Sequence record: NC_031937.1 | Direction: 5' to 3' (one strand) | Source: Escherichia phage LM33_P1 | DNA: 38,979 nt | Shown: positions 576 to 35,992 of the stretch, one piece after another | Layout: the number at the start of each line of letters is the position of its first letter | Numbering within the stretch: position 1 is the first letter of the stretch | Notes under the pieces: model-generated | Told to the model about the DNA's origin: nothing | The model's database searches: none | Seen by the model: only the letters and a program-made list of their open reading frames with translations | Made by a program: the position numbers and the translations under genes

Positions 576-613
576 TTGACAGGCAGTAACGACTTAAAGT
601 AATATGTACCACA
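576..613 (+). promoter_or_regulatory. Host sigma70 early promoter (TTGACA - 18 nt - TAATAT), T7 A3-like
   Basis: Near-consensus -35 and -10 hexamers; downstream GTACCACAT..GAAAC resembles T7 A3 initiation region. Confidence 0.6.
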
Positions 614-727
614 TCGAAACAACGGTGATGACCAACACTGAATGGTCTACCTGAAGTCCTCTGACTGAAGGGAATGCTCTTTAACAATCTGGATAAACTC
701 TTAATGTGCGCCGATAGCGACTAACTA

Positions 728-775
728 CAGGGCCTTTGAGTCTACATCTGAAGGCCCTGACTGATAGTCACTAAC
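728..775 (+). promoter_or_regulatory. RNase III-type processing hairpin (CAGGGCCTT/AAGGCCCTG) plus conserved box ACTGATAGTCACTAAC
   Basis: 9-bp perfect inverted repeat followed by box that recurs at 1045-1092 and 1775-1820. Confidence 0.5.
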
Positions 776-782
776 TTAAAGG

Positions 783-1037
783 ATGGACACTATGAAACAC
801 TTAAGCACAATCACTAATCGCAATGAAGTATTCGTGAACACTAAAGGTTATGCGTGGATTCAGCTTAAAGAGATGACAGGAGCGCGTCACCGTGTGGTAG
901 TGCGCAAGGTATCAAGCAAGCAGTTCAGCAACTACAGCGTCGATACTGTGCGTATAGACAACGAGACATACCTGATAGACTCGCAGATAACCGTGAGTCC
1001 TACAGTGGGCGTCTCAGCTCCTTATTTCGCTAACTGA
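783..1037 (+). CDS. Hypothetical early protein (84 aa)
   Basis: ORF in early region, ATG preceded by AAAGGA, flanked by processing-site boxes; no recognised homolog. Confidence 0.55.
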   Translation: MDTMKHLSTITNRNEVFVNTKGYAWIQLKEMTGARHRVVVRKVSSKQFSNYSVDTVRIDNETYLIDSQITVSPTVGVSAPYFAN

Positions 1038-1044
1038 GAGTGAT

Positions 1045-1092
1045 TAACTACAGGTCGTTAGACTGATAGCGGCCTGACTGATAGTCACTAAC
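1045..1092 (+). promoter_or_regulatory. RNase III-type processing hairpin (CAGGTC/GGCCTG with G-U) plus box GACTGATAGTCACTAAC
   Basis: Second copy of conserved early intergenic box. Confidence 0.5.
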
Positions 1093-1120
1093 ACATAATT
1101 AACTTTGAGAGGATATAACT

Positions 1121-1624
1121 ATGGAACGTAATGCTAACGCATACTATGAGCTGCTGGCTGCAACCGTTGAGGCATTTATCGAGCGTATTCAGTACGACCA
1201 CCTGACTCAAGATGACGACTACAGCGCTGCGCTGCATGAGGTCGTAGACGGTCAGGTTCCACACTATTACCACGAGATTTTTACGGTGATGGCTGCTGAT
1301 GGTATAGACAACGAGTTCGAAGACTCTGGGATGATACCTGAAACCAAGGACGTAACGCGTATCCTACAAGCTCGCATCTATGAGGCACTTTATAACGACG
1401 TGTCTAATAGCTTGGATGTAGTCTGGTTTGAGGATGAAGAGGCAGACGAAGAGGATGAATATTGGGTAGTTGACGCTAAAACAGGCGCAATAATTGTGCA
1501 AGCTGTAGCTCTTGAGGTCGCTACTGCATGTGCCAAGGTCAACTATGTGATAGGTCGCCACCTTCAGGTGGAAGACATCAATGATAACGTAGTGTTTGAC
1601 CCTGCTGCTGAGGACTGCGAGTGA
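1121..1624 (+). CDS. ocr: Ocr-like anti-restriction DNA-mimic protein (T7 gene 0.3 homolog) with C-terminal extension
   Basis: Clear similarity to T7 Ocr (VPHYY..IF.VMA..GID.EFEDSG..P.TKDV.RILQARIYE); strongly acidic; RBS GAGAGG; 167 aa versus 117 aa in T7. Confidence 0.88.
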   Translation: MERNANAYYELLAATVEAFIERIQYDHLTQDDDYSAALHEVVDGQVPHYYHEIFTVMAADGIDNEFEDSGMIPETKDVTRILQARIYEALYNDVSNSLDVVWFEDEEADEEDEYWVVDAKTGAIIVQAVALEVATACAKVNYVIGRHLQVEDINDNVVFDPAAEDCE

Positions 1625-1774
1625 TGGTAACTTATGGCCTCTGCCAGCACCACGTCACTAACGCCCGGCTTATGGTCAAGACCGGGCAGTTAGACCACGA
1701 TTGGGCTATGCGTCTCTTGAAAGTGGTCTACAGGAGACGCAAGCGTATACACGACAGTTTACACGCTAAGTGAC

Positions 1775-1820
1775 AGACTACAGGTCATCAATGCTGGTGG
1801 CCTGACTGATAGTCATTAAC
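1775..1820 (+). promoter_or_regulatory. RNase III-type processing hairpin plus box GGCCTGACTGATAGTCATTAAC
   Basis: Third copy of conserved early intergenic box. Confidence 0.5.
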
Positions 1821-1836
1821 AACTGAGAGGGAAGAT

Positions 1837-2064: not shown

Positions 2065-2137
2065 CCTAAATAAACAGGAGAGAACCAAATCATAGCTTGA
2101 CCATAACACTGACGTGATGGTACTGAGTGATAGACGA

Positions 2138-2166
2138 GAGGTCATCGACTGATAGGTGGCCTCAAA
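2138..2166 (+). promoter_or_regulatory. RNase III-type hairpin (GAGGTCA/TGGCCTC) with GACTGATAG loop
   Basis: Inverted repeat with G-U wobble, shares loop motif with the other early boxes. Confidence 0.4.
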
Positions 2167-2196
2167 GATTACCACTTACATTGATAGGAGTTAACT

Positions 2197-2924: not shown

Positions 2925-4892
2925 ATGAGCGTCATCTCTATTGACAAGCACGACTTCTCTGATGTGTCGAACGCCATTGAGCCGTTTAACCTACTGGCTG
3001 ACCACTACGGGCAAGACATTGCAGTCAAACAGCTTCAGCTTGAGCACGAGGCATACACTGAAGGCGAGCGACGTTTCATCAAGAACCTTGAGAGACAGAC
3101 TGAGCGAGGGGAACTGGCAGACAATCAGGTCGCCAAGCCTTTGATGCAGACTCTGGTCCCTAAGATTGCGCAAGCCGTCAAGGAGTGGCATGAAGGTCCA
3201 GACGGGAAGCTGTCAACCTCTCGTCCGAGCGTAGCGTTCACCATGTTGAGCACTGAAGAGAAGGCCGTAAAGGTCCGCTCTTTGCGCATCTCCTGCGAGT
3301 CTGCTGCGGTTATCATATTGAAGGTCATACTCTCCAAGCTGGTCAAGCCTGAAGGGATACCGATTACACCGATGGCCTCAGCGATAGGTCGCACACTTGA
3401 GGACGAAATCCGCTTCGGTCGCATCCGTGACAAGGAGAAAGAGCACTTCAAGAAGGCGATAGCTGATAACCTGAATAAGCGGGCCGGGGCGTCCTACAAG
3501 AAAGCCTACATGCAAGCGGTCGAGGCATCCATGCTGGAGCAAGGCCAACTGGAAGATGCGTGGGGGACTTGGAGTCCGACCGAGGCTGTCCACGTTGGAA
3601 TCAAGATGCTGGAGATTGTCATCCAGTCCACACAACTGGTCGAGCTTAAGCGTTACGGTGCTGGCAATGCAGCGGCTGACGTTGAGATGGTCCACCTGTC
3701 AGACTTCTGGGTCAAGAAGATGGCACAACGAGGATTCAGCCTTGCGGGTATAGCTCCAGTCTACCAGCCTTGCGTCGTTCCACCTAAGCCGTGGACTGGT
3801 GTCGTAGGCGGTGGGTACTGGGCCAAAGGACGCAGACCATTACCACTGATTCGCTTAGGGTCTAAGTCTGCGGTAGCACGCTACGAAGACGTGTATATGC
3901 CTGAAGTCTATGACGCTGTGAACATCATTCAGAATACACCTTGGAAAGTGAACAAGAAGGTTCTGGAAGTGGTGAACATGGTCGAGAAGCTGAACAACAC
4001 GCCTATTGATGACATCCCTCAGATGGAACCGCTGAAGCCTGAGGACTATGCGGGTGAGACTGAAGAAGAACTCAAGGCATGGAAGAAGGCTGCTGCTGGT
4101 ATCTATCGCCGCGAGAAGGCCAGACAGTCACGAAGATTGTCACTGAGCTTTATCGTCAACCAAGCGAACAAGTTCTCTCAGTTCAAGGCCATCTGGTTCC
4201 CGTATAACATGGACTGGCGCGGTCGCGTCTACGCTGTGCCGATGTTCAACCCTCAGGGTAACGACATGCAAAAGGGTCTTCTGACTCTGGCAGTCGGTAA
4301 GCCTATTGGTGCTGATGGTTTCAAATGGCTGAAGGTCCACGGTGCAAACTGCGCGGGTGTCGATAAAGTCACCTTCGAGGAGCGTATCAAGTGGGTGGAA
4401 GATAACCACGACAACATCATGGCTGCTGCCAAGGCACCGATGGATAGCATTGAGTGGTGGGGCAAGTTAGACTCTCCGTTCTGCTTCCTAGCGTTCTGCT
4501 TCGAGTATGCTGGCGTAATGCACCACGGCTTGTCTTACTCCTGCTCGCTGCCGATAGCGTTCGATGGGTCCTGCTCTGGGATTCAGCACTTCAGCGCTAT
4601 GCTTCGCGACCACATCGGTGGACATGCAGTAAACCTGACGCCATCCGGTAAGGTCCAAGACATCTACCGCATCGTGTCTGACCGCATTGAGGAGGAGCTT
4701 AAAGTCCTACTGGTTAACGGTACGGACAACGAGATGGTAACTCACGAGGACAAGAAAACTGGTGAGATTACCGAGCGTCTCAAGCTGGGGACACGAGAGC
4801 TTGCCCGTCAGTGGCTGACCTACGGTATGTCACGAAAGGTCACTAAGCGTTCGGTCATGACTCTGGCCTACGGGTCGAAAGAGTACGGCTGA
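2925..4892 (+). CDS. 1: T7-like single-subunit DNA-directed RNA polymerase, N-terminal 655 codons, ends at in-frame TGA
   Basis: Collinear similarity to T7 RNAP; ORF terminates ...MTLAYGSKEYG* where T7 continues ...GSKEFGFRQQ. Confidence 0.9.
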   Translation: MSVISIDKHDFSDVSNAIEPFNLLADHYGQDIAVKQLQLEHEAYTEGERRFIKNLERQTERGELADNQVAKPLMQTLVPKIAQAVKEWHEGPDGKLSTSRPSVAFTMLSTEEKAVKVRSLRISCESAAVIILKVILSKLVKPEGIPITPMASAIGRTLEDEIRFGRIRDKEKEHFKKAIADNLNKRAGASYKKAYMQAVEASMLEQGQLEDAWGTWSPTEAVHVGIKMLEIVIQSTQLVELKRYGAGNAAADVEMVHLSDFWVKKMAQRGFSLAGIAPVYQPCVVPPKPWTGVVGGGYWAKGRRPLPLIRLGSKSAVARYEDVYMPEVYDAVNIIQNTPWKVNKKVLEVVNMVEKLNNTPIDDIPQMEPLKPEDYAGETEEELKAWKKAAAGIYRREKARQSRRLSLSFIVNQANKFSQFKAIWFPYNMDWRGRVYAVPMFNPQGNDMQKGLLTLAVGKPIGADGFKWLKVHGANCAGVDKVTFEERIKWVEDNHDNIMAAAKAPMDSIEWWGKLDSPFCFLAFCFEYAGVMHHGLSYSCSLPIAFDGSCSGIQHFSAMLRDHIGGHAVNLTPSGKVQDIYRIVSDRIEEELKVLLVNGTDNEMVTHEDKKTGEITERLKLGTRELARQWLTYGMSRKVTKRSVMTLAYGSKEYG

Positions 4893-4926
4893 GGACATCG
4901 TGATGCCAGGGACATCGTGATGCCAG
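4893..4926 (+). repeat. Perfect 17-nt tandem direct repeat (GGACATCGTGATGCCAG x2) inside the RNAP gene
   Basis: Read directly; lies immediately 3' of the in-frame TGA (4890-4892). Confidence 0.9.
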
Positions 4927-5606
4927 CGATTGACTCAGGGTCTGGCGCTATGTTCACTGAACCAAGCCAAGCATCTCGCTTCATGGCTAAGATGATTTGG
5001 GAAGCTGTGAGTGTGACCGTAGTTGCTGCGGTTGACGCGATGAAATGGCTTCAGGGTGCTGCCAAGCTGCTTGCTGCTGAAGTGAAGGACAAGAAGACTG
5101 GAGAAATCCTGAAGCCTTGTCTTCCGGTACACTGGGTCACACCTGATGGTTTCCCTGTCTGGCAGGAATACCGCAAGAAGGACACCACTCGTCTGAACCT
5201 GATGTTCTTAGGGTCATTCAACCTTCAGCCTACCGTCAACAAAGGCACGAAGAAAGAGCTGGACAAGCACAAGCAGGAGTCAGGCATTAGCCCGAACTTC
5301 GTCCACTCACAAGATGGTAGCCACCTCCGCAAGACTGTAGTCCACACGCACCGCAAATATGGCGTGATGTCATTCGCAGTGATTCACGATAGCTTCGGGA
5401 CCATCCCGGCTGACGCTGAGTATCTGTTCCGTGGAGTCCGTGAGACGATGGTCGAGACCTACCGCGACAACGATGTGCTGCTTGACTTCTACGAGCAGTT
5501 TGAATACCAGCTTCACGAGAGCCAGAGAGACAAGTTGCCTGAGCTTCCGAAGAAAGGTAAACTGAATATCGAAGACATCTTGTCTTCAGACTTTGCATTC
5601 GCTTAA
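4917..5606 (+). CDS. 1: T7-like RNA polymerase, C-terminal 229 codons (same frame as N-terminal part)
   Basis: Similarity to T7 RNAP C-terminus through ...HDSFGTIPADA... to terminal FAFA; same frame as 2925..4892, separated by TGA plus 8 codons. Confidence 0.88.
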   Translation: MMPAIDSGSGAMFTEPSQASRFMAKMIWEAVSVTVVAAVDAMKWLQGAAKLLAAEVKDKKTGEILKPCLPVHWVTPDGFPVWQEYRKKDTTRLNLMFLGSFNLQPTVNKGTKKELDKHKQESGISPNFVHSQDGSHLRKTVVHTHRKYGVMSFAVIHDSFGTIPADAEYLFRGVRETMVETYRDNDVLLDFYEQFEYQLHESQRDKLPELPKKGKLNIEDILSSDFAFA

Positions 5607-6153: not shown

Positions 6154-6176
6154 CCTAAACTATCACTATAGGATTA
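6154..6176 (+). promoter_or_regulatory. Phage RNAP promoter (CTAAACTATCACTATAGGATT)
   Basis: Consensus match; position equivalent to T7 phi1.1. Confidence 0.7.
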
Positions 6177-6215
6177 GACTCAAGGTCATGACTCAAAGTC
6201 GTGGCCTTCATGATT
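6177..6215 (+). promoter_or_regulatory. RNase III-type processing hairpin (AAGGTCA/TGGCCTT, G-U containing)
   Basis: Conserved box AGACTCAAGGTCAT...GTGGCCTTCATGATTA, also at 13110 and 35902. Confidence 0.5.
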
Positions 6216-6249
6216 AACCCTAAATAAACACTACTGGAGATTTAACCGT

Positions 6250-6429
6250 ATGTATCAGAACACTATCAACTTCGAGCGCATCCGTGAACGTCAGCAGACT
6301 GAAGGTTACATCCCTAAGGGCCGCAAGCTGAACAAGACTAAACGTGGAGGAGGTATCAAAGGTGCTTTCCGTAACGCTGAAGGTAAAGACTCTATGGTTA
6401 ACCAAGAGAAATACTTCGTAGGAGCATAA
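6250..6429 (+). CDS. 1.1: Gene 1.1-like small basic protein (59 aa)
   Basis: Similarity to T7 gp1.1 (..GRKLNKTKR..); position upstream of 1.2; below the ORF-track cutoff. Confidence 0.6.
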   Translation: MYQNTINFERIRERQQTEGYIPKGRKLNKTKRGGGIKGAFRNAEGKDSMVNQEKYFVGA

Positions 6430-10101: not shown

Positions 10102-10592
10102 TGAGCAAGAAGTTTAAACTGTTAGTAGATGCGCATGGCTGGCCTAGTGGGACTATAGTTACCAAGTGTGAGAATGACCCCGTACCAGATTCAAGAATGA
10201 CCCTAGTTGAGTGCCAGATTCCAGGCGCATACAAACATGGGTCTAACGGCTGCAATACTCAGCCTGAGGGTATGTGGGGAGCATGGGTCCTTAATTGGAA
10301 ACTTGAGGAAATCAAGCCGGAAGAGAAACTCACTGGTGTCCAAACCACTCAAGTCCTGCCAGCTTCGAGCGTACCGCCTGTGACTTTGAAGCGTGAAGTC
10401 CTGACCATCGACAAGATTGGTGTAGGCCAGACGTTCATCGTCCATGGAAAGCCTGAAGAAGTTTACGTGAAGATTAGCAACTCACACGTCTTCAACCATA
10501 AGCATCTCCAGATGCACACCACGGACGCACAACGCTTCACCCAGCACCTGAATCTGGTTGTCGTAGAATTGGTGGTGTACAATGGTAAGTAA
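10101..10592 (+). CDS. Hypothetical protein (163 aa) between endonuclease I and amidase
   Basis: ORF with RBS AAAGGAG, ATG overlapping the gene 3 stop (TGATG); no T7 counterpart recognised. Confidence 0.6.
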   Translation: MSKKFKLLVDAHGWPSGTIVTKCENDPVPDSRMTLVECQIPGAYKHGSNGCNTQPEGMWGAWVLNWKLEEIKPEEKLTGVQTTQVLPASSVPPVTLKREVLTIDKIGVGQTFIVHGKPEEVYVKISNSHVFNHKHLQMHTTDAQRFTQHLNLVVVELVVYNGK

Positions 10593-11040
10593 GGTACAGT
10601 TCAATCCACGGTCCCGGACCGACGCTATCTTCGTACACTGTTCGGCTACCAAGCCAGAGATGGACATCGGGGTAGAGACCATCCGTATGTGGCACAAGCA
10701 GCAAGGCTGGCTGGACGTAGGCTACCACTTTATCATCAAGCGCGATGGCACTGTGGAAGAGGGACGCCCGGTCAATGTCGTAGGGTCACACGTTAAGGAC
10801 TGGAACTCACGGTCTGTAGGCGTCTGCCTTGTAGGTGGAATTGACGCTAAGGGCAAGTTTGAAGCTAACTTCACTCCGGCCCAGATGAACTCCCTGCGCA
10901 ACAAGCTGGCTGACCTGAAGGACTTGTATCCTCAGGCAGAAATCAAAGCACATCATGACGTAGCACCAAAGGCGTGTCCAAGTTTCGACTTGCAACGCTG
11001 GCTGTCTACCAATGAACTGGTCACTTCCGACCGAGGCTAA
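10582..11040 (+). CDS. 3.5: N-acetylmuramoyl-L-alanine amidase (T7 lysozyme, RNAP-binding)
   Basis: Strong similarity to T7 gp3.5 (DAIFVHCSATKP, WLDVGYHFIIKRDGTVE, CPSFDL..W....ELVTSDRG). Confidence 0.92.
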   Translation: MVSKVQFNPRSRTDAIFVHCSATKPEMDIGVETIRMWHKQQGWLDVGYHFIIKRDGTVEEGRPVNVVGSHVKDWNSRSVGVCLVGGIDAKGKFEANFTPAQMNSLRNKLADLKDLYPQAEIKAHHDVAPKACPSFDLQRWLSTNELVTSDRG

Positions 11041-11103: not shown

Positions 11104-11182
11104 GTCTCCATAGCTCAAACGGTAGAGCGGCGGGTCGTGATGGCCTATTGCGATTAGGGTTCGAATCCCCGTGGAGACGCCA
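11104..11182 (+). tRNA. tRNA-like element (7-bp acceptor stem, canonical D-arm, T-loop GGTTCGAATCC, encoded CCA; anticodon arm non-canonical)
   Basis: GTCTCCA...TGGAGAC acceptor pairing, D-arm GCTC-AAACGGTA-GAGC, T-arm TAGGG-TTCGAAT-CCCCG, 3' GCCA; 76 nt plus CCA; no well-paired anticodon stem found by hand (candidate loops UCGUGAU or UUGCGAU). Confidence 0.5.
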
Positions 11183-11193
11183 CTAAGGAGTGA

Positions 11194-12897
<1,704 letters not shown>

Positions 12898-12939: not shown

Positions 12940-13104
12940 GTGTTAAAGAAACTTAAAGCTCGCTACCATCGGTTCATGTACAAATGGTGGAGCGACGAAG
13001 CAACCTGCCTGTCGAACATTCTGGGAGACCAGCGGTTCAACTCTGAGGCATGGAAGAAAGCTAACCGGAAGTTCATGTATCACTTCTTGCGTACAGACTT
13101 CTAG
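12940..13104 (+). CDS. Possible small protein (54 aa, GTG start) in the gene 4.3/4.5 position
   Basis: GTG preceded by GGAGGA; basic/aromatic-rich; below the ORF-track cutoff. Confidence 0.3.
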   Translation: MLKKLKARYHRFMYKWWSDEATCLSNILGDQRFNSEAWKKANRKFMYHFLRTDF

Positions 13105-13109
13105 GTCTA

Positions 13110-13145
13110 GACTCAAGGTCATTCACATAGAGTGGCCTTTATGAT
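13110..13145 (+). promoter_or_regulatory. RNase III-type processing hairpin (AAGGTCA/TGGCCTT) upstream of gene 5
   Basis: Second copy of box AGACTCAAGGTCAT...GTGGCCTTTATGATTA. Confidence 0.5.
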
Positions 13146-13167
13146 TAGACTAAACGGAGGATTAACC

Positions 13168-15339
13168 ATGTTTGACCTTAAGAGTATCTGGGGTTCTGAC
13201 ATCGAGACCAACGGTCTCCTTGATACAGTCTCCCAGTTTCACTGTGGGGTCCTGATTAACGCCGAGTCGAATGAGACCCTTAAGTATGGGGTAGCTCCGA
13301 TGGTCGGTATCGTCGGTGGCTTCAAAGAGTATGTGCAGAAGGTGGAAGAGATTGCCGCATCACCTGATGGTATGCTGGTATTCCACAACGGTATCAACTA
13401 TGACGTCCCGGCTATTGACAAGCTGAAGCGTCTGTACTTCGGGAAACGCTTTAACTTCCCGAAACACAAGATGATTGATACCTTGGTGCTGGGTCGCTTG
13501 ATGTATCCCAACATTAAGTTCTCAGACATGGGCGCAGTGAAAGCTGGTCGTCTGCCACCTAAGATGATGGGACGCCAGTCTCTTGAGGCTTGGGGCTATC
13601 GTCTCGGTGAGATGAAAGGTGAGTACAAACACGATTACGTTGCCAAGTGCAAGGCTGAAGGTATCGAATATAAGGCTGGGGACGAATGGTTGTTCCCGTC
13701 TCAGGAGATGCTAGACTATAACGTTCAAGACGTTGTGGTCACACTGGCGTTGTTCAAGAAGTTCCTGACTGACAAGTATTACTTCCAGTCTGAACAGTTC
13801 GCTTTCGACCAGATTTATGCGTTGCGTCTGGAACATGATGCTGCGTGGACCTGTGCGAAGATGGAACGTAACGGCTATCCGATGAACACCGAGATGGTCG
13901 AAGGCTTATATCGTGAACTCACCGTCAAACGTGCAGAGCTGCTGGACAAGCTGCGTTCGACTTTCGGTAGCTGGTACGCACCAAAGGGCGGAAAGGAGTT
14001 CTTCAAGCACCCACGGACAGGCAAGGACCTTCCGAAGTATCCGAGAGTCGTGTATCCTAAGGTCGGTGGCATCTTTAAGAAGCCGAAGAACAAAGCTCAA
14101 CGCTTAGGTCTTGAACCCTGTGAACGCGATACGCGAGACACGATGGAGGGAGCACCATTCACGCCAATCACTTACGTTGAGTTTAATCCGGGAAGCGGAG
14201 ACCACTTAGCGAAAGTCTTGATGGAGCGTGGCTGGGAGCCTGTGGACTTCACTGACACCGGGAAACCTGTAGTCGATGACGAGACGTTGGAACACGTTAA
14301 GTTACCAGACGCAGAGGCTCAGGCTTGCGTAGAGCTGGTCCGTGAGTATCTGGTAGTCCAGAAGCGCATCGGTCAGGCGGCTGAAGGTAAGAACGCATGG
14401 TTGAAACTTGTAGGTCAAGACGGACGTATGCACGGTTCAATCAACCCATGCGGGGCAGTAACCGGACGTGCGACCCATAGTGCACCAAACATGGCTCAGG
14501 TACCTGCTAACGGTGCTCCGTATGGTGAGACTTGCCGTGGTGCTTTCGGTGCAGCGTGGAACAAGAAGGACGGCAAGCCAGACCCTTGGGTTCAAGTAGG
14601 CGTGGATGCTTCAGGTCTTGAGCTTCGTTGTCTGGGGAACCGAGCGGCACCGTTTGATGGTGGCGACTATGCTAAGACTGTGGTAGAAGGCGACATCCAC
14701 TGGGCCAACGCAGTCAACGCTGGGTTAGCACCTAACGTCCCACGCGACAAGTCGAGCCATGACCACGATGCTTTCCGTAATAACGCCAAGACGTTCATCT
14801 ATGCGTTCCTGTATGGCGCAGGGGCCGCTAAGATTGGACTGATAGTTGGTGGTGGTAAGAAGGAAGGTGCGGCCCTGATGAAGAAATTCATTGAGGGTAC
14901 ACCAGCTATCAAGGACCTCAGGGAAGCTGTGAGTAATACGTTAATCTCAGACTCTAAGTGGGTGGACGGAGAGAACATCGTTAAGTGGAAACGCCGTTGG
15001 CTGCGTGGACTTGATGGTCGCCGTATCCACATCCGGTCTCCACACTCAGCACTGAACGCATTACTTCAAGGTGATGGTGCGGTAGTCTGTAAGACTTGGT
15101 TCACTTGGCTGGAGCGTAACCTCGAAGCTAAGGGCTATGTTCACGGGTGGGATGGGGACTTTGCGATTATGGCATTTGTCCACGATGAAGTTCAGGTTGC
15201 TGCCCGCACCATGGAGATTGCTGAGGACATCGTTAAGGTTGCTCAGTCCACGATGCGCGAGGTGGGTGAGTTCTATCAGTTTAAATGCGTATTGGACACC
15301 GAGGGCAAGATAGGCCCTACGTGGAAAGAATGCCACTAA
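13168..15339 (+). CDS. 5: DNA polymerase (family A) with thioredoxin-binding loop
   Basis: Collinear similarity to T7 gp5 including KYPR...PKVGGIFKKPKNKAQR thioredoxin-binding segment; start taken at ATG after RBS AACGGAGG (track ORF begins 13132 inside the hairpin). Confidence 0.93.
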   Translation: MFDLKSIWGSDIETNGLLDTVSQFHCGVLINAESNETLKYGVAPMVGIVGGFKEYVQKVEEIAASPDGMLVFHNGINYDVPAIDKLKRLYFGKRFNFPKHKMIDTLVLGRLMYPNIKFSDMGAVKAGRLPPKMMGRQSLEAWGYRLGEMKGEYKHDYVAKCKAEGIEYKAGDEWLFPSQEMLDYNVQDVVVTLALFKKFLTDKYYFQSEQFAFDQIYALRLEHDAAWTCAKMERNGYPMNTEMVEGLYRELTVKRAELLDKLRSTFGSWYAPKGGKEFFKHPRTGKDLPKYPRVVYPKVGGIFKKPKNKAQRLGLEPCERDTRDTMEGAPFTPITYVEFNPGSGDHLAKVLMERGWEPVDFTDTGKPVVDDETLEHVKLPDAEAQACVELVREYLVVQKRIGQAAEGKNAWLKLVGQDGRMHGSINPCGAVTGRATHSAPNMAQVPANGAPYGETCRGAFGAAWNKKDGKPDPWVQVGVDASGLELRCLGNRAAPFDGGDYAKTVVEGDIHWANAVNAGLAPNVPRDKSSHDHDAFRNNAKTFIYAFLYGAGAAKIGLIVGGGKKEGAALMKKFIEGTPAIKDLREAVSNTLISDSKWVDGENIVKWKRRWLRGLDGRRIHIRSPHSALNALLQGDGAVVCKTWFTWLERNLEAKGYVHGWDGDFAIMAFVHDEVQVAARTMEIAEDIVKVAQSTMREVGEFYQFKCVLDTEGKIGPTWKECH

Positions 15340-17248: not shown

Positions 17249-17521
17249 ATGGCGATTAATGCTATTGAAAACGTTGTTAAGCAGTTACAGGAAGAAAGAC
17301 TTGATGTCCCGAACATCTCCCAGTCTGCCATCCAGTTCATGCACGTACTGTTCAACGCAAGCTACGCTGAGAAGACTGGAGCTATCAGTCTCCTCAAGCA
17401 GCAAGGCTACAGCGATGCGTTCATTGCCGGATTCATCAAGGGTCTCCAGTATTGTTCTGACACTCTCGACTCTGCGATTGCTATGCGTCGTGAGCTGAAA
17501 GATACCGTTCAGTTCGATTAA
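17249..17521 (+). CDS. Gene 6.5-position protein
   Basis: ORF with RBS AAAGAGGAG directly after promoter; synteny. Confidence 0.6.
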   Translation: MAINAIENVVKQLQEERLDVPNISQSAIQFMHVLFNASYAEKTGAISLLKQQGYSDAFIAGFIKGLQYCSDTLDSAIAMRRELKDTVQFD

Positions 17522-35636: not shown

Positions 35637-35896
35637 CGCAGATGGACTTAGAGAAGTTCCTGTTAATGCTGGACACAGAACGTGCTAGACTAATGCTGCA
35701 AGACCTGCGGGATGACACTAAGCGTTCACCTCAGCTCTACAACGCCATTGAGAAACTGCTTGCTCGACACAACTTTGTGTTAAGCAAGGTGTCTGTGGAC
35801 GAGAAGACGCTGGCGGATATGGAGGCCTTGAACGAAGAGTACGATAAGGTGCTTTCAGCTACTGAGGATAATGACACCGGGTATGGTGTTCAATAA
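35633..35896 (+). CDS. 18: Terminase small subunit
   Basis: Similarity to T7 gp18 (..FL.MLDT..A..ML.DL.D...RSPQLYNAI.KLL.RH.F). Confidence 0.8.
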   Translation: MTQMDLEKFLLMLDTERARLMLQDLRDDTKRSPQLYNAIEKLLARHNFVLSKVSVDEKTLADMEALNEEYDKVLSATEDNDTGYGVQ

Positions 35897-35901
35897 GTGT
35901 T

Positions 35902-35935
35902 AGACTCAAGGTCATCGTCAGGTGGCCTTTATGGT
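35902..35935 (+). promoter_or_regulatory. RNase III-type processing hairpin (AAGGTCA/TGGCCTT) upstream of gene 18.5
   Basis: Third copy of box TAGACTCAAGGTCAT...GGTGGCCTTTATGGTTA; position matches T7 R18.5. Confidence 0.5.
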
Positions 35936-35992
35936 TAACACTGACTAGTGGAGGCGACTCTACGTTAAATCTGATAAACCGGGAGGGCAACT

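Follow-up and report, generated by a model that had tools for sequence, protein, structure and literature searches.

A repeated 22-nt box in the early region of Escherichia phage LM33_P1 as the probable 3' half of a T7-type RNase III processing signal

The window, i.e., the whole stretch of DNA analysed here, comprises 38,979 nucleotides of Escherichia phage LM33_P1 (sequence record NC_031937.1). Judged by its sequence, LM33_P1 is a K1F-like member of the T7 group (Studiervirinae). Its first 6 kb are 99.8% identical to Kayfunavirus LM33P1 (OZ035813.1) and 92-98% identical to many K1F-like coliphages. Apart from positions 4891-4909, the first 6000 bases equal OZ035813.1, which is the public LM33_P1 record; since the early region is identical there, the boxes described below are natural sequence. 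The early ORFs include a clear homologue of ocr (gene 0.3) at 1121-1624, and the RNA polymerase gene extends from 2925. The ORFs at 783, 1121 and 1837, which the initial annotation had placed behind the repeated boxes, are indeed present. The start of the first one is less certain, as its homologue in phage ASO2B begins at the second ATG, which corresponds to 792. These three are the first early ORFs after a promoter-like sequence at 576-605, the best match of its kind upstream of sites 1 to 4. If this candidate is the early promoter, sites 1 to 4 would lie within one polycistronic early transcript.

A search of the whole window for GGCCTGACTGATAGTCACTAAC, with up to 3 mismatches allowed, returned exactly 3 copies, all on the plus strand: 754-775 (1 mismatch), 1071-1092 (exact) and 1799-1820 (1 mismatch). 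None of 100 dinucleotide shuffles yielded any match, so none is expected by chance, and a repeat finder recovered this 3' box family (D1) independently. The three near-identical copies that had been noticed before are thus real; only the start of the first had to be corrected, from 752 to 754. A partner box, ACTACAGG, precedes each 22-nt box, at positions 724, 1047 and 1777. The wider 5' box, AGYGAYWRAC-NNNAGG, corresponds to a second repeat family (D2) with four copies, at 716, 1039, 1769 and 2126. This 5' partner had been missed in the initial annotation. The features that have to be considered are the following.

576..605, plus strand: candidate sigma-70-like promoter, TTGACA-18-TAATAT, matching 10 of 12 consensus positions (pattern match only)
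711..779, plus strand: site 1, upstream of gene 0.2 (ORF 783/792-1037); lower stem 716-723/765-772, pair C725-G763, upper stem 728-737/750-759, loop 738-749, 3' box 754-775
1034..1096, plus strand: site 2, upstream of the ocr (0.3) gene at 1121-1624; lower stem 1039-1046/1082-1089, pair C1048-G1080, upper stem 1051-1060/1067-1076, loop 1061-1066, box 1071-1092
1764..1824, plus strand: site 3, upstream of ORF 1837-2064; lower stem 1769-1776/1810-1817, upper stem 1781-1790/1795-1804, 3' box 1799-1820
2121..2183, plus strand: site 4, diverged, upstream of ORF 2197-2301; lower stem 2126-2133/2169-2176, upper stem 2138-2147/2154-2163
6165..6228, plus strand: fifth site, of T7 type, ACUCAAGG...GGCCUUCAU^GAUUAAC, before the gene 1.1 homologue at 6250
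13098..13158, plus strand: sixth site, of T7 type, between the end of the long-ORF region (11197-12897) and the start of the DNA polymerase gene at 13169
35891..35949, plus strand: seventh site, of T7 type, upstream of the gene 18.5 homologue (start 35994)

Each of the seven is found on the plus strand, after a stop codon and ahead of the next ribosome-binding site or start codon. The stop codon of gene 0.2 (1035-1037) adjoins the 5' arm of site 2, that of the ORF upstream of site 3 (1771-1773) lies within the 5' arm, and at the sixth site the 5' arm likewise contains a stop codon, TAG at 13101-13103.

One of the checks proposed for these boxes had been RNA structure prediction. Single-sequence folds give an irregular two-helix hairpin of about two helical turns. 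Its upper stem has 10 bp and its lower stem 8 bp, with a 4/5-nt asymmetric internal loop between them; the lower stem is made by pairing of AGYGAYWR with UAGUCACU. The boxes had been described as the 3' arm and tail of hairpins containing G-U pairs, and the folds bear this out, with z-scores of -5.1, -4.8 and -2.4 for sites 1 to 3. Each 22-nt box provides the 3' arms of both the upper and the lower stem, the lower one having been overlooked in the initial annotation. In site 2 the order is lower stem, A-A mismatch, C1048-G1080, UA/ACU internal loop, upper stem and a terminal loop of 6 bases. The 22 bases of the box thereby fall into 6 of the upper stem, 3 of the loop (ACU), 1 in the isolated C-G pair, 1 mismatched A, 8 of the lower stem and 3 in the tail (AAC). 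The two deviating copies keep their pairing. In copy 3, T instead of C at 1816 leaves a G-U in place of a G-C pair; in copy 1, C instead of G at 755 pairs with G732. The internal loop of sites 1-3 reads ACUA / ACUGA, with the 4/5 layout of T7 R1.1.

The terminal loop varies among the sites. The GACTGATAG within the loop of site 2 was considered as a third functional element and dropped, as it is not conserved: K1F has GACTGCTAG and Vec13 GAATCATAG instead. Its copy at 14837 (z +0.46, no significant structure, no model match) and that at 17382 (minus strand, no model match) were treated as chance.

Site 1 folds with -25.6 kcal/mol, reaches 51.5 bits with the covariance model described below and has its predicted cut at 762^763 (U/G); its orthologue is identical in K1F and in eight other Kayfunavirus genomes. 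Site 2, which contains the exact box, scores 64.5 bits (predicted cut 1079^1080, U/G), site 3 60.5 bits (predicted cut 1807^1808, U/G). The fourth, more diverged hairpin with ACUGAU in its loop had also been reported before and is present at 2138-2163. The complete site 4 is close to T7 R0.5, with which it shares CTGAGTGATAGAC and GGCCT...GATTAYCACTT; it scores 59.1 bits, its predicted cut is 2166^2167 (A/G), and orthologues are found in every Kayfunavirus genome examined. The fifth site directly follows a phage-promoter-like CTATCACTATAGGA and is the positional equivalent of T7 R1.1 (46.8 bits, E 4e-9; fold z -4.2; predicted cut 6211^6212). The sixth scores 45.6 bits (z -3.5; predicted cut 13142^13143). 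The seventh, the positional equivalent of T7 R18.5, scores 52.9 bits (z -3.4; predicted cut 35932^35933). At the place of T7 R1, the region 2836-2925 upstream of gene 1, there is a weak fold (z -1.5) and no model match.

The fold is backed by covariation. A pattern scan of viral contigs returned mostly chance matches, which were filtered by means of the 5' box; 29 further T7-like sites were left. In an alignment of 31 sequences, 96.6% of the cells are paired and 8 pairs show compensatory changes, whereas only 24-46% of the cells pair if the partners are slid by 1-3 columns in the same 31 sequences. RNAalifold predicts the identical two helices independently. With 80 distinct sites, 95.3% of the cells are paired and 15 of the 19 pairs have undergone compensatory changes, a result that was reached in 0 of 500 shuffles. 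Pair 18-64, for instance, occurs as C-G, U-A, A-U and U-G. The differences between K1F-type and T7-type boxes are compensated as well: ACAGG/CCUG versus CAAGG/CCUU amounts to C-G versus A-U beside the loop. The G-U pairs and the weak scores of the minus strand indicate that the element works at the level of RNA rather than DNA.

A covariance model, run over the whole window without any filter, yields seven matches of 45.6-64.5 bits; the next best reaches 11.6 bits. The four early sites of the window were in the seed alignment, the three later ones (6165, 13098, 35891) outside it. The model recovers T7 R0.3 and R0.5 as well as R0.3 (68.6 bits), R0.5 (60.4) and R1.1 (39.8) of T3. Built from R0.3/R0.5-like sites, it also finds T7 R1.1 (L001:5844-5904, 49.9 bits) and R1.3 (29.5 bits). 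A scan of the whole window with Rfam assigned no family to the sites at gathering score; its sole match was a tRNA at 11104-11179.

RNase III processing of such transcripts is biology known since the 1970s and 1980s. At what we take to be the mapped positions of T7 R0.3 and R0.5, the sequence reads ...GATAACTCAAGGGTATCGCAAGGTGCCCTTTATGATATTCACTAAT... and ...GAGTGATAGACTCAAGGTCGCTCCTAGCGAGTGGCCTTTATGATTATCACTTTAC..., and this layout matches the LM33_P1 boxes column for column. The T7 sites R0.3, R0.5 and R1.1 have the same 5' box, A-C-U-N-A-N-G-G, and the same 3' box, G-G-C-C-U-N-N-N-U/A^G-A-U-N-N-N-C-A-C-U, as LM33_P1. They also share the 10-bp upper stem, the 4/5-nt internal loop, the 8-bp lower stem, the invariant G-C and A-U at positions 1 and 2 of the proximal box and the intergenic arrangement of upstream stop codon, site and next ribosome-binding site; one covariance model detects both. 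The differences are in detail. Sites 1-3 of LM33_P1 have ACUA/ACUGA with C-G, the T7 sites ACUC/UAUGA with A-U. The early 3' halves of LM33_P1 are nearly identical, whereas the lower stems of T7 differ from site to site, and cleavage in LM33_P1 is only predicted. In the T7 GenBank records examined, the R sites are not among the annotated features. In T3 (AJ318471), in contrast, five stem-loops with equivalent boxes, R0.3, R0.5, R1, R1.1 and R1.3, are annotated as "RNase III recognition site", while in the Kayfunavirus records examined such sites are unannotated or labelled as terminators. T3 R1 even carries the ACAGG...CCUGA variant of the early LM33_P1 sites; lower-stem sequences and downstream genes differ between the two phages.

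What was observed directly comprises the repeats, their fold and the covariation that backs it, homology to the T7 and T3 sites, and the placement between genes on the sense strand. On these grounds we consider it very probable that the 22-nt box forms the 3' half of an RNase III processing signal of the T7 type. That the sites are RNase III sites of a T7-type early transcript had been proposed in the initial annotation, and the base-for-base alignment with the T7 and T3 sites, together with the covariation-backed fold, strongly supports it. The element thus belongs to a well-known kind; it is real but ordinary.

The background is favourable to this reading. R1.1 is a standard test substrate of RNase III, 60 nt long, with a 4/5-nt asymmetric internal loop, and its primary cut is made both in vivo and in vitro (PMC6121014). 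Internal loops restrict RNase III to one cut, which leaves a protective 3' hairpin (PMC1540722). The early precursor of T7 carries five RNase III signals (PMC3867540), the T7 genome ten (PMC6938266). A literature search retrieved no report of cleavage for LM33_P1 or its genus. Cleavage, the exact position of the cut and the effects on message stability and translation are what we infer, in the following way.

In the early polycistronic RNA, each site would fold into an irregular hairpin of about two helical turns. The RNase III of the host would bind the helix and make one cut on the 3' side of the internal loop, 5 nt past the upper-stem GGCC (CCUGACU^GAUAG). The upper hairpin would stay on the 3' end of the upstream message and might shield it from 3' exonucleases. 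The downstream message would begin with pGAUAGUCACUAAC and have a 5' leader of 26-61 nt ahead of its ribosome-binding site. The cut positions given for the window were obtained by alignment to the T7 cut coordinates 890, 1468, 5887 and 6448, reportedly those of Dunn and Studier 1983. The four coordinates share one position in the alignment: they lie after the fifth base past GGCC/GCCC, in U^GAU (U^CAU at R1.3).

How well would the enzyme like these sites? The pairs preferred by RNase III, i.e., G-C, A-U/U-A, A-U and A-U/U-A in the proximal box and U-A and U-G in the distal box, were compared with the alignment. Positions 1 and 2 of the proximal box are canonical, G-C and A-U, and invariant in 80 of 80 sites. 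Position 3 is C-G in sites 1-3 and G-C in site 4 rather than A-U. At position 4 there is a non-Watson-Crick A-A, which can be compared with the U-C of R1.1. In the distal box, U-A/U-G is realised in site 2 only; the other sites have it partially. Because of the C-G or G-C pair at position 3, the reactivity of the early sites could be below that of the T7 sites.

The deviation at position 3 leads to a first alternative, namely that the early sites of the K1F type bind RNase III but are cut poorly, C-G acting as an antideterminant that would make them binding or regulatory sites. In the work on the minimal R1.1 substrate, A-U is indeed described as optimal at position 3, and substitutions at positions 1-3 as weakening binding, which suits this idea in view of the C-G of sites 1-3 and the G-C of site 4. 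The same ACAGG/CCUGA arrangement, however, is found in the annotated R1 site of T3. C-G is also present in 18 of the 80 sites, many of them early sites of other genera, which suggests a tolerated functional variant, and the positions of the strongest antideterminants are canonical, with A-U at position 2 and the non-Watson-Crick A-A at position 4. Poor cutting is therefore very improbable in our opinion. Still less can be said for the hairpins being rho-independent terminators or attenuators between the early genes. The idea is not invented: the ASO2B record MZ726794 labels 1060-1095, 1860-1892, 2298-2333 and 6255-6291 as "rho-independent terminator" (WebGeSTer), and these features coincide with the matches of our covariance model in ASO2B. 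Yet no T run follows any of the seven hairpins, the stems being succeeded by CTGACTGATAG, CTCAAAGAT or CTTTATGAT, and none of the five sites between 1 and 7500 turned up in a terminator scan of that range. The homologous sites of T7 and T3 are processing sites, and expression would be blocked if a terminator preceded each early gene, ocr and the genes of the polymerase region included. We give this interpretation practically no chance. A nut-like boxA/boxB arrangement was also considered and rejected: the window contains a single boxA, GCTCTTTAACAA (676-687); it precedes site 1, and sites 2-4 are without one.

A further possibility was raised by the conservation beyond the stem, which the initial annotation had taken as a hint to an additional sequence-specific role. 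A second factor, be it an RNA-binding protein, a small RNA or the ribosome at the new end pGAUAGUCACUAAC, would then read the single-stranded part of the box. In the 80 sites, the loop bases U, G, A and U next to the predicted cut hardly vary, and several genera have CACUAAC at their first early site. Dunn and Studier reportedly observed that cleavage at R0.3 improves the translation of T7 gene 0.3. The demand for such a factor shrinks, however, once the complete hairpin is considered, for the lower stem, the loop at the cut site and the pairs preferred by RNase III explain most of the conservation. Only the tail AAC is left over, and family-wide it is poorly conserved (0.4-0.6 bits). The late sites of LM33_P1 have a different loop (UUUAU^GAU) and different lower stems, so no single sequence is required. 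The title of Chelladurai et al. 1991, as it stands in the reference list of PMC6121014, declares a conserved sequence element dispensable for accurate cleavage in vitro, and no other function is documented for the element. No observation calls for a second factor, and on balance it is very improbable.

Per-column information of the 80 sites tells where the constraint resides. The ACU and the A on the 3' side of the internal loop, where the scissile bond is predicted, are conserved across the whole family, and there is hardly any variation among the loop bases that surround the cut (A, U ... U, G, A, U). Both arms of the lower stem carry much the same information; family-wide, the 3' arm is not more conserved than the 5' arm. 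Only the three paralogous early sites show an asymmetry between the arms. Conservation across the family is thus just what recognition by RNase III and its cut site would demand. What remains to be accounted for is the near-identity of the three early boxes. At 9 positions that are variable in the family, all three have the same base, although their upper stems and 5' arms have diverged; the changes in the upper stems are compensated. Paralogy and recombination between sites account for this near-identity better than a second factor does.

The RNase III reading has its practical side. Its value is a better annotation: the terminator label would mislead models of early expression in phages that are used therapeutically, such as LM33_P1 and K1F. 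The covariance model detects the complete complement of sites in a T7-like genome and could be used to annotate processing sites throughout the subfamily.

Recombination between sites may have a wider meaning, which adds to the explanation as processing sites and does not replace it. The unit of site, ribosome-binding site and gene might be regarded as a cassette; half-site recombination could then move cassettes and keep the boxes alike. We put this forward tentatively and would not be surprised if it proved wrong. Early genes sharing boxes of 18-22 nt could conceivably be added, deleted and exchanged as such cassettes, the set including the anti-restriction gene ocr. Perhaps the half-sites double as recombination linkers within one T7-like phage or between co-infecting ones, and it is the exchange that keeps the boxes identical, but here too the odds are rather against us.

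The material for this idea comes from nine Kayfunavirus early regions that were scanned with the covariance model. IME177 is without gene 0.2 and has a single hybrid site, in which flank and upper stem of site 1 are joined to the downstream sequence of site 2; being a hybrid of the two, it places the crossover inside their common 21-nt box. Site 3 and the gene behind it are missing from K1F, phage R1 and IME177, with the junction inside the common 5' arm AGTGAYAGAC. In Vec13, an additional cassette is inserted at site 1. Altogether there are about nine distinct rearrangements upstream of gene 1 (600-2900), and four of them have both ends in the sites, which cover about 11% of this region. More than 25 unrelated gene families are found directly downstream of sites, and some cross genera behind different site subtypes. 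The agreement of the three boxes at the 9 variable positions, next to upper stems that differ by several compensated changes, points in the same direction. The sample, however, is small and the genomes are related. Moreover, viable indels must end between genes, and the sites fill most of the intergenic space, so an enrichment of junctions is partly to be expected anyway. A literature search brought up nothing for or against the sites as recombination points.

A similar idea exists for another phage group: Arbiol et al. 2010 reportedly proposed that the promoter-early stem-loops (PeSLs) of T4-type phages are the borders of mobile regulatory cassettes. Like PeSLs, the LM33_P1 sites are repeated regulatory stem-loops that border small, variable early genes, and the junctions of indels fall inside the repeats. 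Unlike PeSLs, they belong to the T7 group and combine no promoter with the stem-loop but represent an RNA processing signal; also, the recombination role in LM33_P1 is deduced from a handful of junctions. Should the linker role be true, the T7 group would have its own equivalent of the mobile regulatory cassettes suggested for T4-type phages. The cassette junctions, if upheld, would show by what simple mechanism the early genes of T7-like phages can turn over so fast.

At four of the processing sites, the T7-type RNase III hairpins of this genome, the stop codon of the upstream gene falls within the lower stem's 5' arm or abuts it. The stop codons are the following (all + strand):

1035-1037, stop codon at the site before ocr
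1771-1773, stop codon at the site 1764..1824
13101-13103, stop codon at the site before the DNA polymerase gene
35893-35895, stop codon at the site before the gene 18.5 homologue

Gene 0.4 of T7 likewise ends at the 5' arm of a lower stem, its stop being contained in GAGTGATAG. With the stop codon in or against this arm, a terminating ribosome would occupy the lower stem, and translation could thereby be coupled to processing.

Hairpins of this kind have been labelled otherwise in a related record. In phage ASO2B (MZ726794) four 'rho-independent terminators' are annotated:

1060-1095, annotated terminator
1860-1892, annotated terminator
2298-2333, annotated terminator
6255-6291, annotated terminator

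They are hairpins orthologous to the sites in LM33_P1 and lie at the same places as the matches of the covariance model of the processing sites. Since they coincide with these matches and none of the four is accompanied by a U-run, the terminator label in this record is probably a mis-annotation.

Immediately 5' of gene 1, the RNA polymerase gene, the region 2836-2925 presents a phage-promoter-like TAACTATCACTATAGGA, followed by ACTCAAGGTC and then by a long irregular hairpin (fold z -1.5). The site model, when run against this hairpin, gave no match. The structure may be a degenerate version of R1, the T7 site upstream of gene 1, or an R1 site of another kind.

About 30 nt 5' of the first site (711..779), GCTCTTTAACAA occurs at 676-687, its single occurrence in the window. 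It resembles the boxA of ribosomal RNA operons. A longer stretch around it, GCTCTTTAACAATCTGG, is shared with T7, where it is found at about 814-830.

Within gene 1, a 19-nt block (4891-4909) does not match the public LM33_P1 record OZ035813.1, nor K1F or ST1749. Its sequence, GAGGACATCGTGATGCCAG, copies that of 4908-4926, which starts 17 nt downstream, and thus makes a short tandem repeat; the block brings in an in-frame TGA that splits the gene into ORFs 2925-4892 and 4917-5606. Over the first 6 kb, the differences from OZ035813.1 are confined to this block, and they look less like natural variation than like the result of editing or of an assembly error.

A further element, atypical among T7-like phages, is located in the 156-nt gap between the ORFs 10582-11040 and 11197-12897:

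11104-11182, + strand, tRNA-like gene (Rfam tRNA match, ARAGORN call)

The Rfam tRNA model scores it at 36.7 bits (gathering score 29), and ARAGORN reads it as tRNA-Thr (CGT) whose CCA end is encoded in the gene. A phage-promoter-like CTAAACTATCACCGTAGGGA stands immediately 5' of it. Of the 176 related phage records with a match to this stretch, only 33 carry the complete element, and the carriers that were listed have no annotation for it.

Close to the left end (230-340), 5' of the early promoters, there are arrays of short repeats, e.g., CCTACAGTC and AACCATAAG(T/A)C. An exact 14-nt direct repeat, GTATAGACAACGAG, occurs inside gene 0.2 (952-965) and inside ocr (1302-1315), probably by chance.
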